The notes beneath the pieces were generated by a model. The model was not told the DNA's origin. It did not search any database and was given only the letters and a program-made list of their open reading frames with translations. This document shows, piece by piece, positions 1 through 59,205 of a stretch of DNA of 64,000 bases. The DNA comes from Chloroflexota bacterium. GTDB lineage: Bacteria > Chloroflexota > UBA11872. Every line of letters starts with the position of its first letter. Position 1 is the first letter of the stretch. The translations under genes were made by a program, and so were the position numbers. Location of the stretch: contig JAJECS010000030.1 in the NCBI GenBank assembly GCA_022821905.1, positions 8,586 to 72,585 of the forward strand, given 5' to 3'.

Positions 1-449
1 AGCCCGCGCTCGCGTCCACGTCGGCCGAGCAGGGTCGGCTGGCCGCGCGACATGCCCTGGGATTGGACTGCCCCAGCATCGACGACGAGTTGCCCATTGG
101 CATCTACACGATCCCCGAGATCGCCCTGGTCGGAAAAACCGAAGAGCAACTCACGATGGAAGGGGCGGCTTACGAGAGCGGCGTGGCGCGGTACAAGGAG
201 ATTGCGCGCGGCGCGATCATCGGCGACGACTTCGGCATTCTGAAGCTGCTGTTCGATCCCGATACGCGCAAGGTGCTGGGCGTCCATATCTTCGGCAACC
301 AGGCCAGCGAGCTGCTGCACATCGGCCAGGCCGTCATGCAGCTCGGCGGAACCATCGACTACTTCGTGGAGACGATCTTCAACTATCCGACGTTCGCCGA
401 GGCCTACAAGGTTGCCGGGCTGAACGGGGTGAACAAGCTGGTCCGGTAG
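1..449 (+). CDS. sthA: 3' part of a soluble pyridine nucleotide transhydrogenase / pyridine nucleotide-disulfide oxidoreductase (dimerisation domain); the 5' end lies outside the window
   Basis: The C-terminal sequence ...FNYPTFAEAYKVAGLNGVNKLVR matches the SthA/Lpd-family dimerisation domain; the reading frame is open from the window start. Confidence 0.6.
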   Translation, partial: PALASTSAEQGRLAARHALGLDCPSIDDELPIGIYTIPEIALVGKTEEQLTMEGAAYESGVARYKEIARGAIIGDDFGILKLLFDPDTRKVLGVHIFGNQASELLHIGQAVMQLGGTIDYFVETIFNYPTFAEAYKVAGLNGVNKLVR

Positions 450-21122: not shown

Positions 21123-21148
21123 GGATTCCCGCCTTCGCGGGAATGACG
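21123..21148. repeat. Copy of the GGATTCCCGCCTTCGCGGGAATGACG dispersed repeat
   Basis: Exact motif; intergenic, between the second tRNA-Phe and the cyclophilin gene. Confidence 0.75.
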
Positions 21149-53177: not shown

Positions 53178-53978
53178 GTGGGCACATTCGACGGGAAATC
53201 AGTCGTGGTGACGGGCGGCGCTCAGGGCATCGGCGGCGGGGTGAGCAAGGGCTTCGCCCGGGCCGGCGCGTCGGTGACGGTGGTGGATATCGACGAAACG
53301 GCTTCCGCGGCGCTTACCGGCGGCCTGGAGGACGAAGGGTGCACGGCGCAGTACGTGATTGCCGACGTGAGCAGCCATGCGGACGCGAAACGGGCGATCG
53401 ACCAGGCCGTGTCCGCCTTCGGCGGAGTCGACGTGCTGGTGAACAACGCGGGCATTCAGCCGATGGGGTCTTATGTCAAGCTCGACGCCGAGACCGAGGA
53501 GGGTTGGGACCGGATCATCGGGGTGAACCTCAAGGCCTGCTTCCTGATGTCGAAGTACGCCATTCCCTCGATGCGCGAGCGCGGCGGGGGCACGATCATC
53601 AACGTCGCCAGCGTGCAGGGGCTGCAATCGCAACCGATGGTGCCAGCGTACGCGGCATCGAAGGGCGGGTTGCTATCCCTGACGCGAAACATGGCGCTGG
53701 ATTACGCGCCGGAGAACATCCGGGTGGTGGCGATCAACCCGGGCTCGATCGATACGCCGATGCTGCGCACGCAGGCACGGGCCGCCGGCGACGAGGACGC
53801 CATGGTGGAAACCTGGGGACGCACACACCCCATCAAGCGCATTGGCCAGCCGGCGGACATCGCCAACGCGGCGATGTTTCTCGCCAGCGATCAGGCCAGC
53901 TTCATCACGGGCGAATACCTGTGCGTGGACGGCGGGTACATGGCCCAGGGCGCCTGGGCGGGGAACTACGACGAGTGA
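53178..53978 (+). CDS. SDR-family oxidoreductase (short-chain dehydrogenase)
   Basis: TGGAQGIGGG cofactor motif, NNAG, and the catalytic S...YAASK. Confidence 0.85.
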   Translation: MGTFDGKSVVVTGGAQGIGGGVSKGFARAGASVTVVDIDETASAALTGGLEDEGCTAQYVIADVSSHADAKRAIDQAVSAFGGVDVLVNNAGIQPMGSYVKLDAETEEGWDRIIGVNLKACFLMSKYAIPSMRERGGGTIINVASVQGLQSQPMVPAYAASKGGLLSLTRNMALDYAPENIRVVAINPGSIDTPMLRTQARAAGDEDAMVETWGRTHPIKRIGQPADIANAAMFLASDQASFITGEYLCVDGGYMAQGAWAGNYDE

Positions 53979-54078
53979 CCGAGAGTTGTCACGCCCGGAC
54001 GCGGGGGCTCTGGGCCCACACGGACAAGTCAGGGACGGCCGGGGAAAGCCGTGTGCGGCCGCAAGTTGGATGACGGGT

Positions 54079-54143
54079 GGATTCCCGCCTTCGCGGGAAT
54101 GACGGAAGGGGGCGGGAATGACGGATGCGGCAGGAATGACGGA
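54079..54143. repeat. Dispersed-repeat copy extended by three tandem GGGAATGACGGA-like units
   Basis: GGATTCCCGCCTTCGCGGGAATGACGGAAGGGGGCGGGAATGACGGATGCGGCAGGAATGACGGAGG. Confidence 0.7.
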
Positions 54144-54162
54144 GGGATGACTCCGAGGTCTC

Positions 54163-56391
54163 TTACGGCGGCAGGGTCTGGAGGAAGTTGACCAGGTTCC
54201 AGATGTCGAACACGGTCAGCGTCTCGCCGAATGCCGGCATGGCCGTGTCGGCGATGCCCTGTTCGATGAAGCCGTAGAGCTCGCCGTCGGGGTGCAGCGG
54301 CACGTGAATGGTCAGGTCCAGCGGCGGCGGATCGAGTCCAGCCGCCAGCGGGCCGTCGCCCTGTCCGCCCGGACCATGGCAGCTGACGCAGTGCGCCTCG
54401 AAGTGCATGCGTCCGGCATCGACGGATTTCTGGTCGGGCGGAACGGGGTTCACGGCGCTCAAGGAGCTTGGAGCGAACTCGGGGGTGGTGACCAGCAGCG
54501 CCAGCCCAGCCGCGGCAGCGCCGAAGCCGACGACCGTCACGCCCCGCCGCGCCCAGTCCGCCCAGGCCACCGGCTGCAACATGCCGAAGGCGAGGAGGAG
54601 ACCCAGGCCGGCGAGCGCAATGGCCCACACGCGGCGCACATCGTCGGCGGCCGGGGGCGGTGCGCCGCCCGCCGCTGAGCCGCCCGGCGTCACGTCGAAC
54701 CGGAAGGGCGCGCGCGCGTCGAACTCGCCCGGGCGCCGCACGATTGCGAGCGCCTGCCAGCGACCGACGAGGCCGATGAAGTCGCCCGCCACGACGTAGC
54801 GTCCGTCAGCGTCCCCTTCCAGACGCAGATCTCGCTGCCCGATGTCCGAGTCGAGGAACTTGAACTGCAGCTCGACGTCGGCGTCCTTCACGGGCTGCCC
54901 ACGGTCCTGAAGCGTCAGGGTGGCGGTGTTGTTGCCGGGCGTGCCGGGCTGAATGCTCAACTCCAAGTCGAGATCGTCGATTCGGGTCGCCAGGTTTATG
55001 CCTCGCGCATCGCCCAACGCGACCTGGCGCGCAGGTTCGAGACTGGTCAGCAGGCCGACCGCCGCAACGACGGCGACGCCAAACAGCACCTCGGCGGCCA
55101 CCAGGCGCGGCGCCCACCGGCCGGCAGCCGTGGGCAGCACATCGTGCAGGCGACGCCGCGTCCAGAGCAGGTTGACGCCGCCCAGGCCAAGGAGCGGCGC
55201 CACGAGCGCGAGCTTGGCCACCAGCACCCGTCCGTAGTCGGTTTGCACCAAGCGCGGCAGCTCGACGACTTGAATCCAGGTGGCAAACGCGCCGGTGATG
55301 ACAAGCGCGCCGACCGAGATCGTGGCAATGGTCGAAAATCGCGCCAGCAGCGCCCCCAGCAGGCGGCGGCGCAAGGCGCCGTCGAGCGTCCGGCGGGCAT
55401 GCAGGAGCGACAGCAGCAGCGGGGCGAGGCCACCGGCCCAAAGAGCGGCCGTGAGCAAATGCAGCACGTCGGCGCTGGTGGCCGCCGTCGTGGACTCGAG
55501 CAGCGCCGCGGCGTGGCTGCCCAATGAAATCGTGACGAGCACAGCCGCGGCCAATGCCACGACCGGCAACCAGGCTCGAAGCAGCCGCGGCTCGCGGCCG
55601 GCGCGCATCAGGGCCAGGGCCAACCCGCCGACCACGATGGCCCGCACGACCCACAGCGTGCCCCACTGCCCCAAGCCGAGCGCGCTGCCGACAGCACCCA
55701 CCAGATCCGCCTCGGCATCGCCCGCCAGGCCCGCGGCCTGGGTCACCAGCAGTCCCACATGGGCGCCGGCGGCCAGACCGAAGCCGATCCATCCGAGCTC
55801 CAGGTAGCGCGATCCCGCAGTGCCGACGCCGACCGCGCGGGCGGCGGGCGCGAAGATCAGAGGCACGTGCACCGCGGTGCCCAGCACGAGCATGGCGCCA
55901 ACGAGCAGCGCGGCTCGCAGCACGGGCTCGGCGGGGCTGAGCACGAGCGCGGACGCCGGAGTGCTCGCCACGTCAGCGTCGATGGGCTCGCCTACGCTGA
56001 AGGCGTACGAGCCGCGGATCACGTGACCATCAACAACCGACAAGGTGCGCCAGGTCACGACGTAGGTGCCGTCGGCGAGCGGCGGCACGCGGACCAACAT
56101 GGCGGAACGGTTCGACGGGTCGACCTGGCTGGGGCCGTCGGTCACCGACGACCCGGAGGCATCCAGGACATCGATGCGGCTGAATTCAGGTTCGATTCGC
56201 TCGGAGAACTCGGCGGCGACGATTTGTGGCGGCTTGTCAACCGTCGAGCCCGCGGCGGGTATTGCCCGCACGAGGTTGGCATGGGCGGCGACCGGCATGA
56301 GCCCGAGGCATGCGAGCAACGCGGCAAGCGCGGTGGCCAATGCCCAGCGGCGGGCCGGCGCGTGGGTCAGACGGCGGAGCGACCGTTGCAT
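54163..56391 (-). CDS. CopC-CopD fusion copper-resistance/transport protein with a C-terminal mono-haem cytochrome c domain
   Basis: A signal peptide, then a CopC-like domain (HANLVRAIPAAGSTV...GTYVVTWRTLSVVDGH), an 8-10 TM CopD-like region and a C-terminal CVSCHG (CxxCH) haem motif. Confidence 0.75.
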   Translation of the reverse strand: MQRSLRRLTHAPARRWALATALAALLACLGLMPVAAHANLVRAIPAAGSTVDKPPQIVAAEFSERIEPEFSRIDVLDASGSSVTDGPSQVDPSNRSAMLVRVPPLADGTYVVTWRTLSVVDGHVIRGSYAFSVGEPIDADVASTPASALVLSPAEPVLRAALLVGAMLVLGTAVHVPLIFAPAARAVGVGTAGSRYLELGWIGFGLAAGAHVGLLVTQAAGLAGDAEADLVGAVGSALGLGQWGTLWVVRAIVVGGLALALMRAGREPRLLRAWLPVVALAAAVLVTISLGSHAAALLESTTAATSADVLHLLTAALWAGGLAPLLLSLLHARRTLDGALRRRLLGALLARFSTIATISVGALVITGAFATWIQVVELPRLVQTDYGRVLVAKLALVAPLLGLGGVNLLWTRRRLHDVLPTAAGRWAPRLVAAEVLFGVAVVAAVGLLTSLEPARQVALGDARGINLATRIDDLDLELSIQPGTPGNNTATLTLQDRGQPVKDADVELQFKFLDSDIGQRDLRLEGDADGRYVVAGDFIGLVGRWQALAIVRRPGEFDARAPFRFDVTPGGSAAGGAPPPAADDVRRVWAIALAGLGLLLAFGMLQPVAWADWARRGVTVVGFGAAAAGLALLVTTPEFAPSSLSAVNPVPPDQKSVDAGRMHFEAHCVSCHGPGGQGDGPLAAGLDPPPLDLTIHVPLHPDGELYGFIEQGIADTAMPAFGETLTVFDIWNLVNFLQTLPP

Positions 56392-56401
56392 GACCCTGCC
56401 C

Positions 56402-56422
56402 GGGCAGGTTTGAAACCTGCCC
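56402..56422. terminator. GC-rich hairpin GGGCAGGT-TTGAA-ACCTGCCC between the cupredoxin-like gene and the copCD start; repeat family 2; possible terminator or attenuator
   Basis: Same architecture and loop as the 36076 element; ends about 10 nt upstream of the copCD ATG. Confidence 0.35.
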
Positions 56423-56462
56423 CTACGCCTGATTTCCGCCGCGCTTCCAAGATTGACCGGAC

Positions 56463-56489
56463 TGGATTCCCGCCTTCGCGAGAATGACG
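56463..56489. repeat. Copy of the GGATTCCCGCCTTCGCG(A/G)GAATGACGG dispersed repeat
   Basis: Intergenic, immediately downstream of the cupredoxin-like gene. Confidence 0.75.
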
Positions 56490-56493
56490 GAAC

Positions 56494-57510
56494 TTAGGCA
56501 CGGCGCCGACTCCGAACCGCCAGCGCGATCGCAGCAGCGGCGGTCACCAGGCCCAGGGCGCCCACGACTATGCCGACGATGCCAATGACCCGCGCGCCGG
56601 CCGCCTCGTCGAGCGCCTCGTCCGCCGACGCCTGCGAGCTGCGCACCACTCCCTCGAGCTCTCGCACGCTGGGAAGCGTGACGGGGAATTGCGCGGCGGC
56701 GCGAGACTGAACGGCATCAAAAGTGTTGGCGCCCGACTCGAAGGACTCGTCGAACGGCTGCCCCTCGATGCTGCCAACGAATCGGAACCGATAGCCGCCG
56801 GGTTGCGTCGGGATGAAGTCCGCCGTGTAAGCGCCGGGGTGCTCGAACAGCGGCGCGAGCGCCATGACCGTCGACTGCCCCGACGAGATGTGGGTGACCT
56901 CGACTTGCAGGGTGTCCTCCAGGCCGGTCACGGGCCCGCCCAGGCCGGCGGCGGCGTGGGCCTCATCCGTATGCATGCCGCTCGCGATGAGCTGGGGCTC
57001 GCCGGTGCGGTTCACAAACACGACGGTGGTTTCAGGCTGCACCCGAAGCATGGGCGGCACGGCGCCGTCGGCGTGCAATTCGATCTCGACGCGGCTTGCC
57101 TCCGGCGCGTCGCGCGTGACTTCAATCGATCCGGCAATGTCGGGATCGATATGGCTGTGGTAGGGAATGGTCATGCCGTCGAGGCCGTGGGGAATCTCCG
57201 CCTCGAAGGATTCGCCATCCTCGAAGGGCGTGGACACGAAGATTCCGCCGTGGGCCGTGACGTCCGACATCTGGCCGCCGGCCATATCGTGTGACTCCTG
57301 GGCCCCTGGCTGGCTCTCGCCTTTGGTCACCTCGAGGAACACGGCGTTGAGATAGCCCTCGTAGGCGGGTTCGTTGAGGAAGCCGACGACCACGTCGTAG
57401 CCGGCGGATTCCCGGCCCTCGTGCGCCAGCGCGCCCGCGGTCGCGGTGGCGGTGAGGGCGACCGCCGCCGCCAGTGCGCGCGCCACGGCGCGCGCGGATA
57501 TCAATTTCAT
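56494..57510 (-). CDS. Secreted, C-terminally membrane-anchored Met/His-rich protein with a cupredoxin-like segment (candidate copper-binding protein, YcnI/CopC-neighbourhood type)
   Basis: A signal peptide with cleavage giving an N-terminal His (ALA/HEG); an HDMAGGQMSDVTAHGG Met/His motif; VVFVNRTGEPQLIASGMHTDEAH is cupredoxin-like; a C-terminal TM helix plus basic tail. Confidence 0.45.
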   Translation of the reverse strand: MKLISARAVARALAAAVALTATATAGALAHEGRESAGYDVVVGFLNEPAYEGYLNAVFLEVTKGESQPGAQESHDMAGGQMSDVTAHGGIFVSTPFEDGESFEAEIPHGLDGMTIPYHSHIDPDIAGSIEVTRDAPEASRVEIELHADGAVPPMLRVQPETTVVFVNRTGEPQLIASGMHTDEAHAAAGLGGPVTGLEDTLQVEVTHISSGQSTVMALAPLFEHPGAYTADFIPTQPGGYRFRFVGSIEGQPFDESFESGANTFDAVQSRAAAQFPVTLPSVRELEGVVRSSQASADEALDEAAGARVIGIVGIVVGALGLVTAAAAIALAVRSRRRA

Positions 57511-57588
57511 GTGAGTTCTCCTGAGGGCATGTGCCCGGCGGCGCGAGACAAGATGCTGCGCCAGCCGTGAAGGTCATCGACGAGTCGA

Positions 57589-57936
57589 CTAGCTCCGAGG
57601 CGGTGGATGCGCGGCCTGCGGCGCCCACTCGGTCACGCGTTGGGTCGTTTGCGTGGTTCGTCGCGAGGCGATGAGCAGTAGGGCCGTGGCCATCAGCGCC
57701 GGGAGCACGCCGGCGAGCAGACCAAAGGCGCCCTCGGGAAATTCGCCCGACGACGCCTCCGATTCAGTTTCCAGCGGCGCGTCGCCGGTCGCGAAATGCA
57801 CGTGGCGGTGCCCCTCGTGCCCGGGCGGAACCTCGATGCCAATGGCCTGCGCGAGCCACACGGTCAGCAGGGGCGCGGCCAGGGCAAGCAGCGCCGCGCG
57901 CGCGAGCATGCGCCCGCCGAGGCTGGATGGGGTCAT
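57589..57936 (-). CDS. Small His-rich bitopic membrane protein (about 115 aa) in the copper gene neighbourhood
   Basis: An N-terminal signal/TM segment, a PPGHEGHRHVHF His cluster, an acidic linker and a C-terminal TM helix; the start is uncertain (57936 or 57906). Confidence 0.4.
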   Translation of the reverse strand: MTPSSLGGRMLARAALLALAAPLLTVWLAQAIGIEVPPGHEGHRHVHFATGDAPLETESEASSGEFPEGAFGLLAGVLPALMATALLLIASRRTTQTTQRVTEWAPQAAHPPPRS

Positions 57937-58021
57937 GGCAGTCACGATTCGCGGAAACCGTTCACGCGCACCAGCCAAGCTTACTGCCGCCGGAGGACGG
58001 TAACGCGAACGGCTTCCTCGG

Positions 58022-58294
58022 CTAGACGCGCGCCGACATGTCGACGGGAAGGACAACCAGCATGGTGGAGCCGGCGCTGCCGGCAGACGCACCATCGCTG
58101 CCAGCGGCAACATTGGCCCGGATGTGGTCGATGACCGTTTCGACTTCCCGTTCGGCCACGCCGACCAGCAGGGTCACGTTGCCGCGCCTGAGGAAACCGC
58201 CCGTGGTGTTGATGCGCGTGACGCGGAAATCGTCCGCAACCAGCGCCGCCTGGACCGTGTTGGCGTCGTCGTTCGACAACACGGCGAGCACCAT
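58022..58294 (-). CDS. darA: PII-like cyclic-di-AMP receptor (DarA/PstA, DUF970 family)
   Basis: MVLAVLSNDDANTVQAALVADDFRVTRINTTGGFLRRGNVTLLVGV aligns with B. subtilis DarA (YaaQ). Confidence 0.7.
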   Translation of the reverse strand: MVLAVLSNDDANTVQAALVADDFRVTRINTTGGFLRRGNVTLLVGVAEREVETVIDHIRANVAAGSDGASAGSAGSTMLVVLPVDMSARV

Positions 58295-58377
58295 GCGTTC
58301 AACCGGAATCTCGGGAAGCACCAGTCAGCAGCAGGGGATGGGCAGCGCGCGACGCTAGCACCGGCTGAATCTAGGGG

Positions 58378-59205
58378 TCAATCTCCCGGTGGCGGGAACG
58401 CCACGTGCAAGTCGTGCGCATGCGCAAGCTCGATCATGGCTTGATGGATGCGCCCGTTGCTAATCACACAGCGCCGGCTGTCGGGGCCCATGGGACGCCA
58501 ATAAATGTCCGTGGCGCGACCGCCGGCCCGCTCGACGATCAGCGACGCCGCCGCCTGGTCCCACCACTTGACGTTGCCAAGGAGCGCGCCGTCGAAGCGG
58601 CCGGCACCCACCCACGCCATCTCGAGAGCGGCGCTGCCGGTCAGGCGGACGCGATGGAAGGTGGAGGCCGCAGCGGCCAGCGCCACGTGAAGGCGCTGGG
58701 AGTCCTCGCGCGACATACCCGCCTGCGCCCACGCGACGGCTGATTCGGCGGGGTCGTCGCGGTCCGTGACGCGCACTGTTGTTCCGTTGCACTCCGCGGA
58801 CCCGTCGGAGGTGGCCGTGAACAGCTCGTCGCGCACCGGATCGAAAATCACGCCGACGTCCACCCGCCCGTGGGATGCATGCGCCACGCTGACGCAAAAC
58901 TGCGGCTGGCCGCGTGAGTAATTGTCGGTGCCGTCGAGCGGATCGATGACCCAAACGTCGGGTCCCAGCGTGTCGTCGTGAGGCACTTCCTCGGAGAGAA
59001 TCACATGGCCGGGGAACCGGGCGAGCAGCACCTCGCGAATGGCGCGGTCGGCAGCCATATCGGCGTCCGTGACGACCGTTGTCTCCCCTTGATAGGTCTT
59101 CCAGCGAATGTCGATGACGCCGACCAACCGCCGGACGAGCTCGTCGCCGGCCGCCCGAGCCGCGTCGATGGCGGCCTCGAGCATCGCAGCGGAGTCCGCG
59201 GTCAT
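58378..59205 (-). CDS. Inositol monophosphatase family protein (SuhB/CysQ-like)
   Basis: IMPase motifs ...EE.. , VWVIDPLDGTDNY and WDQAAASLIV. Confidence 0.8.
   Translation of the reverse strand: MTADSAAMLEAAIDAARAAGDELVRRLVGVIDIRWKTYQGETTVVTDADMAADRAIREVLLARFPGHVILSEEVPHDDTLGPDVWVIDPLDGTDNYSRGQPQFCVSVAHASHGRVDVGVIFDPVRDELFTATSDGSAECNGTTVRVTDRDDPAESAVAWAQAGMSREDSQRLHVALAAAASTFHRVRLTGSAALEMAWVGAGRFDGALLGNVKWWDQAAASLIVERAGGRATDIYWRPMGPDSRRCVISNGRIHQAMIELAHAHDLHVAFPPPGD

Follow-up and report, generated by a model that had tools for sequence, protein, structure and literature searches.

Bacterial copper import is far less understood than copper efflux, and the best current model for it is a CopCD/YcnJ-type transporter together with the membrane-tethered protein YcnI. 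In a 64,000-nucleotide stretch of DNA from a Chloroflexota bacterium (hereafter the window; contig JAJECS010000030.1 of GenBank assembly GCA_022821905.1), a gene encoding a fusion of CopC, CopD and cytochrome c domains is preceded by two genes for membrane proteins of 338 and 115 aa. The question raised by this locus is what these two proteins are, and whether they could form part of the copper system of their neighbour.

Two genes upstream of a copCD fusion gene

A preliminary description of the window had placed two uncharacterised open reading frames upstream of copCD, and both are present on the minus strand at the positions it gave (Table 1). The larger frame starts with ATG, and GGAGAA stands before this start codon. 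The smaller frame can also be read as a protein of 174 aa (extending to 58113), a reading that was dropped because it runs into a darA-like gene and because the databases call either 115 or 106 aa. When the 115-aa frame was compared with nine orthologous loci, nucleotide differences were found in excess at the third codon position (for example 47 vs 17 and 11 differences), which shows it to be a real gene under purifying selection. The product of the downstream gene matches the Pfam families CopC (2e-20), CopD (2e-19) and Cytochrome_CBB3 (3e-12), with a weak match over a YtkA-like stretch (0.011). It carries a single CxxCH motif, CVSCH at residue 668; its CopC domain spans approximately residues 36-135, and the sequence displays HANL, the mature end of CopC, as well as a DGH motif.

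The 338-aa gene and copCD were also described as lying on the same strand with a hairpin between them, and indeed two hairpins are predicted in the spacer of 102 nt that separates them (MFE -48 kcal/mol, z -3.5). A 9-bp GC hairpin in this spacer abuts the copCD ATG, and a REP-like palindrome within it belongs to a repeat that is found in four copies in the window vs 0.06 expected. A 30-nt copy of the same repeat lies directly after the copCD stop codon. The 102-nt spacer has no T-tract, and nothing resembling a terminator was detected in it; a scan for promoters and terminators gave no sites in the spacers, and an Rfam scan of positions 53900-58600 returned nothing credible. The module genes and copCD may form an operon, and the presence of two stable hairpins before copCD counts against assuming that they are co-transcribed.

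Table 1. Coordinates of the genes, protein segments and spacer elements at the locus (positions in the window)
Feature	Position	Strand	Basis or remark
Gene for small His-rich membrane protein, 115 aa	57589..57936	-	Open reading frame and 29 homologues
Codons H40-E-G-H43-R-H45-V-H47, candidate metal-binding His cluster	57796..57819	-	Invariance
Gene for membrane-tethered protein, 338 aa, unnamed Chloroflexota family	56494..57510	-	Stop codon 56494-56496
Predicted signal peptide, aa 1-29, ending A-L-A	57424..57510	-	Hydrophobic leader, family conservation, model
His30 codon, predicted mature N-terminus	57421-57423	-	
Core Ig-like domain (predicted), N-terminal third, aa 30-63	57322..57423	-	His30, GFLNE47PA motif, Asn55
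Disordered His/Met/acidic linker, aa 64-83, including SHDMAGGQM	57262..57321	-	Start of lineage-specific insertion
Putative cupredoxin-like domain without Cys, circularly permuted, aa 84-182	56965..57261	-	Insert profile, model
Core Ig-like domain (predicted), C-terminal two-thirds, aa 193-280	56671..56934	-	
Long stalk helix, transmembrane anchor at the C-terminus, basic tail, aa 282-338	56497..56667	-	Model, sequence
Spacer between 338-aa gene and copCD, 102 nt	56392..56493	-	Fold z -3.5
REP-like palindrome within spacer	56463-56492		
CopC-CopD-(YtkA-like)-cytochrome c fusion gene, 742 aa	54163..56391	-	Pfam matches

A Chloroflexota-wide family with a predicted N-terminal histidine

The 338-aa protein belongs to a large family that occurs throughout the Chloroflexota and is not rare: 104 homologues were found, and at E<=1e-3 the family comprises 2,419 clusters. 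The association with copCD noted in the preliminary description is very strong: of 83 loci, drawn from different species of Chloroflexota, 80 have a CopC-CopD(-YtkA)-cytochrome c gene as the next gene downstream on the same strand, and at the other three the family gene has no CopCD nearby. This gene order is also found in the cultured bacterium Ktedonosporobacter rubrisoli, whose 237-aa homologue is 39% identical over the core and lacks the insert described below. At 14 of the 83 loci, though, a gene for a thioredoxin-fold redoxin is interposed between the family gene and copCD. The clusters of ten distant representatives are all named ‘hypothetical protein’, and a check for domain fusions among the ten longest members gave weak DUF2846 matches only.

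Neither protein had been assigned to a family that could be named, and scans of both against Pfam and NCBIfam (E<=1) support this view: they gave nothing meaningful, the sole match being a ‘choice_anch_X’ stretch at 0.07. When 105 members of the larger family were compared with Pfam at E<=10, only scattered weak matches to Ig, filamin and membrane-segment families were obtained. When all PDB sequences were searched with a profile of the family, matches were confined to the membrane anchor and the coiled-coil region, and a Foldseek search of the PDB with the full model returned nothing at E<=1e-3. The YcnI family PF07987 (DUF1775) did not match the 338-aa protein (E<=1) and is absent from the 25 listed of the 63 families that matched the 105 members. 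To compare profiles directly, YcnI proteins were collected using a YcnI sequence as bait, their PF07987 membership being taken from precomputed Pfam annotation; hhalign of the family against eight of these proteins gave a probability of 8.7% and aligned only the membrane anchor. YcnI was likewise not among the best 60 structural matches. By these comparisons the family has no detectable homology to YcnI, and the system was fairly characterized as ‘analogous to but distinct from ycnKJI’, given the negative profile comparison with genuine YcnI. CopC (PF04234) matched neither the 338-aa protein nor, among the matches listed, any of the 105 members, and a weak YtkA match was seen in only two of the 105, again among the matches listed.

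The most conserved feature of the family is found at its N-terminus, where the preliminary description had predicted a signal peptide cleaved right before a His. The hydrophobic leader of the 338-aa protein ends ALA|H30 at the predicted cleavage site. Among 251 diverse aligned members, of which 247 have an intact N-terminus, this site is preceded by Ala in 243 of the intact sequences and by Gly in the other four, whilst the residue after it is His in all 247, and signal-peptide cleavage would thus expose this His. Seventeen residues further on, Glu47 is present in 247/247 intact members and Asn55 is conserved in 245 of them; Tyr228 is found in 250 of the 251 and Tyr240 in 241. None of the other conserved core positions that were examined is a His. 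Further conserved positions lie in the C-terminal part of the core (V194, G196, L201, E204, G226, P234, T235, G238, G246, S259, F264 and P276), and the 338-aa protein contains neither Cys nor Trp. The C-terminal transmembrane anchor that had been described is also present, as a single hydrophobic segment (residues 302-334) followed by RSRRRA, and the AF2 model has a helix at 282-337. The family architecture consists of a signal peptide, a beta-sandwich, a stalk helix and a C-terminal membrane anchor.

The AF2 model of the 338-aa protein (pLDDT 82.8) begins with a helix (residues 6-23), passes through a region of low confidence (22-27) and enters its first strand at residue 30. Strands 30-35 and 38-44 form a hairpin, and from this strand pairing His30 would lie opposite Gly43, four residues before Glu47. 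According to the model, the core is a split Ig-like domain of the CopC/CrdA/P19 type. P19 has a multi-His/Met copper site and an acidic iron site, and a fold of this kind brings to mind an iron uptake component like P19/FetP, in which iron binding would depend on copper. We consider this role extremely improbable: the partner of P19, FetP, FtrA, Tp34 and the DUF4426 protein PA0388 is the iron permease Ftr1, whereas the constant neighbour here is CopCD and no Ftr1-type permease gene is adjacent. The identity to these proteins is only 13-16%, their conserved residues do not correspond to those of the family, the P19 metal sites have no invariant counterparts in it, and PF10634 (P19/FetP) matched neither the 338-aa protein nor, among the matches listed, the 105 members. 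The P19-type iron role was rejected because the partner gene is the wrong one and the ligands are not conserved.

A lineage-specific insert and a small His-rich membrane protein

A Met/His patch and a cupredoxin-like stretch had been noted in the 338-aa protein. Both are present, but they do not belong to the core of the protein; they form a loop insertion specific to its lineage, and most family members (about 190-260 aa) have neither the linker nor the cupredoxin-like insert. Residues 74-89 read HDMAGGQMSDVTAHGG. In the AF2 model, linker residues 67-80 have a pLDDT below 50, and among homologues the composition of the linker is kept but its sequence is not.

A profile built from 13 inserts matches plastocyanin, amicyanin and pseudoazurin (E ~1e-3 to 2e-2), with coherent alignment of both halves and many blue-copper proteins among the matches. 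The order of the halves is that of a circular permutation: the N-terminal half of plastocyanin aligns with the second half of the insert, and the C-terminal half of plastocyanin with the first. The AF2 model places strands at 101-177 with a pLDDT above 90. The Pfam family Cupredoxin_1 was found in three of the 105 members among the matches listed (best E 0.009), and no cupredoxin was among the best 50 matches listed for the full model in Foldseek. From these sequence profiles the insert may be called cupredoxin-like, an assignment that is weakly but coherently supported. The earlier proposal thus has some support at the level of the profile but not at that of the metal site, as the order of the stretch is permuted and the ligands of blue copper are missing from it: in the alignment with plastocyanin it has Ser119 at the position of the Cys, Ile at that of the Met and Gln at that of the N-terminal His ligand, and it keeps only one type-1 ligand, His120. 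A classical blue-copper function of the insert is ruled out because the protein has no Cys. H87, H118 and H120 are nearly invariant in the insert-bearing members, and the conservation of H87 and H118 suggests a site different from that of type-1 copper. The loop module, with its His/Met/acidic linker and three-His cupredoxin-like domain, would probably add copper capture or storage capacity.

Other lineages carry other inserts in this family, and these are again His-rich (GEGHAHIYVDG repeats vs the HxH-containing cupredoxin-like domain here). The repeated occurrence of His-rich sequence in variable inserts of different lineages speaks against the idea that the protein is a metal-free structural or regulatory subunit, whose Ig domain binds CopCD or the envelope and whose conserved His and Glu serve folding, processing or protein contact. 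Under such an arrangement it would also be hard to explain why every intact member has His as its predicted first mature residue, unless the free N-terminus is used, and we regard a metal-free role as very unlikely.

The protein of about 115 aa had been described as having a His-rich stretch between two hydrophobic segments. This agrees with what was found: the segments span residues 10-36 and 69-92, and PPGHEGHRHVHF lies between them, with His at positions 40, 43, 45 and 47. The first segment is a hydrophobic leader with a possible cleavage site (AQA|IG). After it comes a short external stretch that contains PGHEGHRH-H, an invariant motif, and a SGEFPEG motif, and the second transmembrane segment is followed by a basic tail with an invariant PPPR end. 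The 29 homologues are each at least 66% identical and the motifs are invariant among them; none of the four His (H40, H43, H45 and H47) varies in 15 orthologues or in relatives of 31-36% identity at four further loci. A small His-rich membrane protein is encoded upstream of the family gene in 51 of the 83 loci, and it is of one of two mutually exclusive types, HEGH (as in the window) and DHHFAER. An hhalign comparison of the two types detected no profile similarity (probability 3.7%), and we therefore claim no homology between them, only an equivalence of position and composition. Whether it spans the membrane once or twice, the 115-aa protein would display its HEGHRHVH cluster on the outside, where it would most likely act as a further low-affinity site for capture or hand-over, or as a sensor, for the same system.

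A possible copper relay and its relation to known systems

Taken as a whole, we think it likely, though well short of assured, that the 338-aa protein, tethered to the membrane, binds copper outside the cytoplasm as an accessory of the CopC-CopD-YtkA-cytochrome c transporter. Signal peptidase I would cut after Ala29 and leave His30 as the free N-terminus. A Cu(II) mono-histidine-brace site of the YcnI/Ang type, carried on a CopC-like Ig sandwich, could then be formed by His30, through its amino group and imidazole, with Glu47 and perhaps also with Asn55 and Tyr228. The CopC domain has an N-terminal-His site of its own, with which copper would be exchanged, either to feed import or to buffer copper, as is seen for YcnI and YcnJ in Bacillus subtilis. 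By analogy with YcnI in Bacillus, the tethered protein probably hands copper to the CopCD importer. [quoted passage not shown]

The same properties might be read as those of a copper tolerance system, in which the protein sequesters or buffers copper away from the importer in the manner of CrdA, PcoC and CopC, and the His-rich parts act as sponges. Indeed the closest structural match is the Helicobacter pylori copper-resistance determinant CrdA, the His/Met-rich disordered linker and the HEGHRHVH cluster resemble low-affinity sponge motifs, and a sequestering or regulatory role has been proposed in the study of YcnI itself (PMC12154828). However, the family's constant neighbour combines CopC with an importer of the CopD type, no gene for a P-type ATPase, multicopper oxidase or RND system adjoins the module in the window or the related loci inspected, and the conserved core of the family has no counterpart of the Met-rich Cu(I) loop found in CrdA (PMC9182242), so that tolerance appears rather unlikely. 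The domain content of the partner points towards another possible destination of the metal, since its YtkA-like and cytochrome c domains would be in keeping with the assembly of cuproenzymes. Copper would then pass from CopCD, YtkA and cytochrome c to haem-copper oxidases or other extracytoplasmic cuproenzymes, with the 338-aa protein acting like CtaK/YtkA, PCuAC or Sco. In B. subtilis, YcnJ has a part in the assembly of CuA through its YtkA domain (PMC13344008), and the redoxin gene interposed at some loci recalls partners of the Sco/TlpA type, but no oxidase subunit genes adjoin the module in the window or the loci inspected and the family has no family-level similarity to PCuAC, Sco or YtkA; an assembly factor is in our view quite unlikely.

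A broader proposal, which is put forward tentatively and which we hold to be possible rather than probable, extends the accessory role to the whole family. These would be independently evolved copper proteins with an N-terminal-His (mono-histidine-brace) site, built on a CopC-like and not a DUF1775 fold, which fill the role of YcnI across the Chloroflexota, including marine lineages of the SAR202 type; one loop would serve as a platform for interchangeable His-rich modules (the permuted cupredoxin-like domain with its three His in this lineage, domains of GEGHAHIYVDG repeats in others), and with the small His-rich protein there would be a three-part copper relay to the CopCD-cytochrome c importer. 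A whole phylum, with abundant marine and sponge-associated lineages, is thereby suggested to use a different protein in the position of YcnI with the same apparent chemistry. If true, this would be a convergent design: a beta-sandwich, tethered next to a CopC domain, that carries an N-terminal His and one carboxylate. The present comparisons also delimit a family of no fewer than 2,400 sequence clusters for which current annotation pipelines say only ‘hypothetical protein’, and the insert-free homologue from K. rubrisoli (EPA93_22165) is a clear and cheap experimental target.

A close parallel amongst known systems is YcnI (PcuD; DUF1775, PF07987), a Cu(II) chaperone that is tethered to the membrane and encoded in the ycnKJI operon of B. 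subtilis (PMC8424229). Cu(II) passes between YcnI and the CopC domain of YcnJ, and each of the two proteins supports growth when copper is limiting (PMC12154828; PMC13344008). The Chloroflexota family shares with YcnI a strictly conserved His directly after the cleavage site of the signal peptide (a predicted site here) and an all-beta extracytoplasmic domain with a C-terminal membrane anchor (PMC8424229), as well as a gene that adjoins a CopC-CopD(-YtkA) fusion. Its conserved Glu47, a candidate ligand, follows His30 at a spacing comparable to that of Glu50 and His27 in YcnI (about 20 residues). It differs in that the conserved Trp137 of YcnI has no counterpart, although the invariant Tyr228 and Tyr240 might stand in for it; in that its gene lies upstream of the transporter gene whereas ycnI lies downstream; and in the large loop insertion carried by the lineage of the 338-aa protein. 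With CopC, PcoC and CrdA the 338-aa protein shares a predicted CopC-type beta-sandwich. These proteins are soluble, however, whilst the family protein is membrane-anchored, and the second His and the Asp of the CopC Cu(II) site (D-x-H) are missing from the invariant positions of the family, with no D-x-H in the alignment consensus. An invariant residue at position +1 is the hallmark of N-terminal-His metal binders such as CopC, YcnI, LPMOs and Ang-1/2 (PMC8424229; PMC12537917). The ‘anglerase’ proteins Ang-1 and Ang-2 are mono-histidine-brace domains on permeases of the HupE/UreJ type (Nat Commun 2025, PMC12537917), and it is in concept that they resemble the arrangement proposed here: an N-terminal-His domain with one extra O-donor (Asn or Asp in their case), held at the membrane beside a metal permease.

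The copCD-linked gene row

The minus strand of the window carries four consecutive genes, which encode a DarA-like protein, proteins of 115 and 338 aa, and a 742-aa protein with CVSCH at residue 668. The sequence features in the preliminary description of the middle two are all present: the 338-aa protein has a leader ending ALA/H30, HDMAGGQMSDVTAHGG and a single C-terminal hydrophobic segment, the 115-aa protein has PPGHEGHRHVHF flanked by two hydrophobic segments, and neither has a nameable family, both being without a Pfam or NCBIfam match. Spacers of 78 and 102 nt separate the 115-aa ORF from the 338-aa ORF and the latter from copCD, respectively, and the hairpin separation from copCD was also borne out, the 102-nt spacer containing a REP-like palindrome together with a GC hairpin that lacks a T-tract. 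The palindrome, CCGTCATTC[CT]CGCGAAGGCGGGAATCCA, has four copies in the window (0.06 expected), and two 30-nt copies, 97% identical, flank the copCD-cytochrome c gene. The darA-like gene precedes the small His-rich gene on the same strand by 85 nt. Among 83 fetched Chloroflexota loci with a gene of the 338-aa family, darA accompanied the module around the family gene only in close relatives (L004-L010, L012 and L026) and was therefore left out of it; a functional link between the two is doubtful.

Features of the window, of related loci (L handles) and of the 338-aa protein (residues)
Feature	Location	Strand	Remarks
DarA-like c-di-AMP receptor gene, short (99 aa)	58022-58321	-	Pfam CdAMP_rec 5e-17
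115-aa ORF	57589-57936	-	
338-aa ORF	56494-57510	-	GGAGAA precedes ATG
742-aa gene (copCD)	54163-56391	-	CopC 2e-20, CopD 2e-19, YtkA/FixH weak, c-type cytochrome 3e-12 at C-terminus
REP-like copies	553-569, 21123-21139, 54078-54107, 56463-56492	-	
Three partial tandem REP-like copies	54093-54148		just past copCD-cytochrome c stop codon
DHHFAER-type gene	L015 4899-5300, L055 4876-5289, L003 5906-6322		and 33 other loci
~190-aa gene	L015 5360-5929, L002 6371-6949, L003 6364-6936		among 27 loci
Redoxin gene	L015 7075-7659		and 13 other loci
DUF6159 gene, directly upstream	L022, L024, L025, L027, L029-L031, L033-L038, L040, L042, L044-L054, L056		
DUF6159 gene, further upstream	L023, L039, L063		
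Core part 1	residues 29-63		AH-E-x-R ... VVGFLNEPAYEG..N (alignment)
Core part 2	residues about 193-280		PVxGLExTLQVEV ... PGxYxAxFIPTxPGxYxFRFxGxIEG ... S.G..TF ... QFP (alignment)

When the 83 loci were compared with the window proteins by tblastn, 80 had a CopC-CopD(-YtkA)-cytochrome c gene directly downstream of the family gene and in the same orientation. The partner in Ktedonosporobacter is a CopC-CopD-YtkA protein without the cytochrome, which is the architecture of YcnJ. The position upstream of the family gene is variable yet patterned. The 115-aa ORF is a genuine gene: its motifs are invariant among 29 homologues in the databases, and nucleotide changes relative to nine orthologous loci fall mostly at the third codon position (e.g. 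47 vs 17 and 11). This type of small protein (HEGH motif, SGEFPE and C-terminal PPPR) occurs in 15 of the 83 loci, and a second small His-rich membrane protein, with an N-terminal transmembrane segment, GP..DHHFAER.P.H.H, more H.H pairs and a C-terminal PP.RPPR, lies upstream in 36. The two types are never found together (0/83) and profile comparison shows no relation between them; the DHHFAER type has no Pfam match. Thirty loci, for the most part from those listed as Dehalococcoidia (L054 bears the name SAR202), instead encode a DUF6159 membrane protein (264 aa, 1e-33) upstream, in most of them directly upstream, at the site of the His-rich gene elsewhere.

In 27 of the 83 loci an extra gene, missing from the window, separates the His-rich gene from the family gene; it encodes a protein of ~190 aa with a signal peptide, a predicted Ig-like beta domain (GPYE..G..PG.P.VG.L.LSI.V), a membrane anchor and no Pfam match. 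In 14/83 loci a thioredoxin-fold redoxin gene separates the family gene from copCD; its product is AhpC/TSA-Redoxin and lipoprotein-like, and in L015 the gene is broken into two ORFs, perhaps through a frameshift or a misassembly. Three loci (L065, L072 and L079) have the family gene but lack a CopCD gene in the roughly 6 kb that follow it; all carry the DHHFAER-type and ~190-aa Ig genes, and L072 and L079 also the redoxin gene, showing that the module can exist apart from the transporter gene.

A split core and its predicted N-terminal histidine

A word-indexed search returned 104 relatives of the 338-aa protein, none with a Pfam domain and all named ones from Chloroflexota, whilst 2,419 clusters at E<=1e-3 (623 at E<=1e-30) emerged when 1.84 billion cluster representatives were searched with a profile; ten of ten distant representatives sampled were labelled "hypothetical protein". 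A one-genome-per-species scan found relatives in 162 species, the best 80 of which are all Chloroflexota (Dehalococcoidia including SAR202, Anaerolineae and unclassified lineages); the Ktedonosporobacter relative came from a separate search. Alignment revealed the conserved core to be discontinuous, its second part being followed by a long helix and then the membrane anchor. Most members (190-260 aa) are the core alone; only part of the family has the insertion that spans residues 64-190 in the window protein, and another group (about 490-610 aa) has a different insert with GEGHAHIYVDG repeats, which points to recurrent gain of His-rich modules at one loop. The latter insert (GEGHAHIYVDG...RVTLN.N.H, one or two repeats; member proteins P0047, P0068, P0074 and similar; P0045, P0050, P0058) gave only weak DUF2846 matches.

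Of 251 members aligned to the core HMM, four were without the N-terminus; in the remaining 247, His30 and Glu47 are invariant (each 247/247), Asn55 is found in 245, and His30 is preceded by Ala in 243 members and by Gly in the other 4. Tyr228 (250/251), Thr235 (243/251), Tyr240 (241/251) and Ser259 (242/251) are also conserved; apart from His30, no conserved core position is a His, and neither Cys nor Met was seen to be conserved there in the 251-member alignment. An A-x-A/H junction with an invariant +1 residue is the signature of proteins in which an N-terminal His chelates metal through its free amino group and its imidazole, as in CopC, YcnI, LPMOs and, described more recently, the Ang-1/Ang-2 domains (PMC8424229; PMC10952591; PMC12537917). 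A role as a non-metal subunit is correspondingly improbable. In the AF2 model (pLDDT 82.8), the first strand begins exactly at His30 and strands 30-35 and 38-44 form a hairpin; from the strand pairing, His30 would face Gly43, four residues ahead of Glu47. The chances are about even that the N-terminus at His30 and Glu47 form the putative site.

Fold and inserted domain

The top structural match was H. pylori CrdA (10.3 / 11.7), and the others listed were DUF4426 PA0388 (9.5 / 10.5), FtrA-P19, HftA and Tp34 (about 9), CopC 5icu (8.3 / 8.8) and the CopC-like domain of YcnJ (6.9 / 7.8); PmoD (7.3) was matched by the core-only model only. P19-like iron uptake is regarded as very improbable, and cuproenzyme assembly as rather unlikely.

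Within the insert, the His/Met patch (residues 67-80) is predicted to be disordered and is conserved in composition only, and a beta domain is modelled with confidence at residues 84-182 (AF2). The stretch had been described as cupredoxin-like, which is weakly supported: a profile of 13 inserts matches plastocyanin, amicyanin, pseudoazurin and a type-1 copper domain (E 1e-3 to 2e-2), but the type-1 ligands are lost (Cys to Ser119, Met to Ile, first His to Gln), with no Cys in the whole 338-aa protein, and the domain is confined to part of the family. Its second half resembles the N-terminal half of plastocyanin and its first half the C-terminal half, indicating that the domain is circularly permuted, as would be fitting for one placed within a loop. 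Since H87, H118 and H120 are nearly invariant in insert-bearing members whilst the type-1 ligands are lost, a different, His-based candidate site is plausible.

Probable copper handling beside CopCD

The DUF1775 protein YcnI is anchored at its C-terminus and frequently adjoins CopCD; its leader is cleaved, and the N-terminal His27, completed by Glu50 and Trp137, forms a site for Cu(II) of the mono-histidine-brace type (PMC8424229). Cu(II) exchange takes place between YcnI and YcnJ's CopC domain, and YcnI aids low-copper growth (PMC12154828; PMC13344008). The 338-aa protein is probably a copper-handling accessory of CopCD; the fuller reading, a tethered copper-binding accessory of CopCD with an N-terminal-His site, is favoured with somewhat less assurance, and copper sequestration or tolerance is an unlikely alternative role for the protein. 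No description of the family, its fold assignment, the loop-insertion modules or the His-rich companions was found in the family libraries or literature searched. The kind of protein is already known: YcnI and Ang-1/2 likewise have a metal-binding domain with an N-terminal His that is tethered next to a permease.
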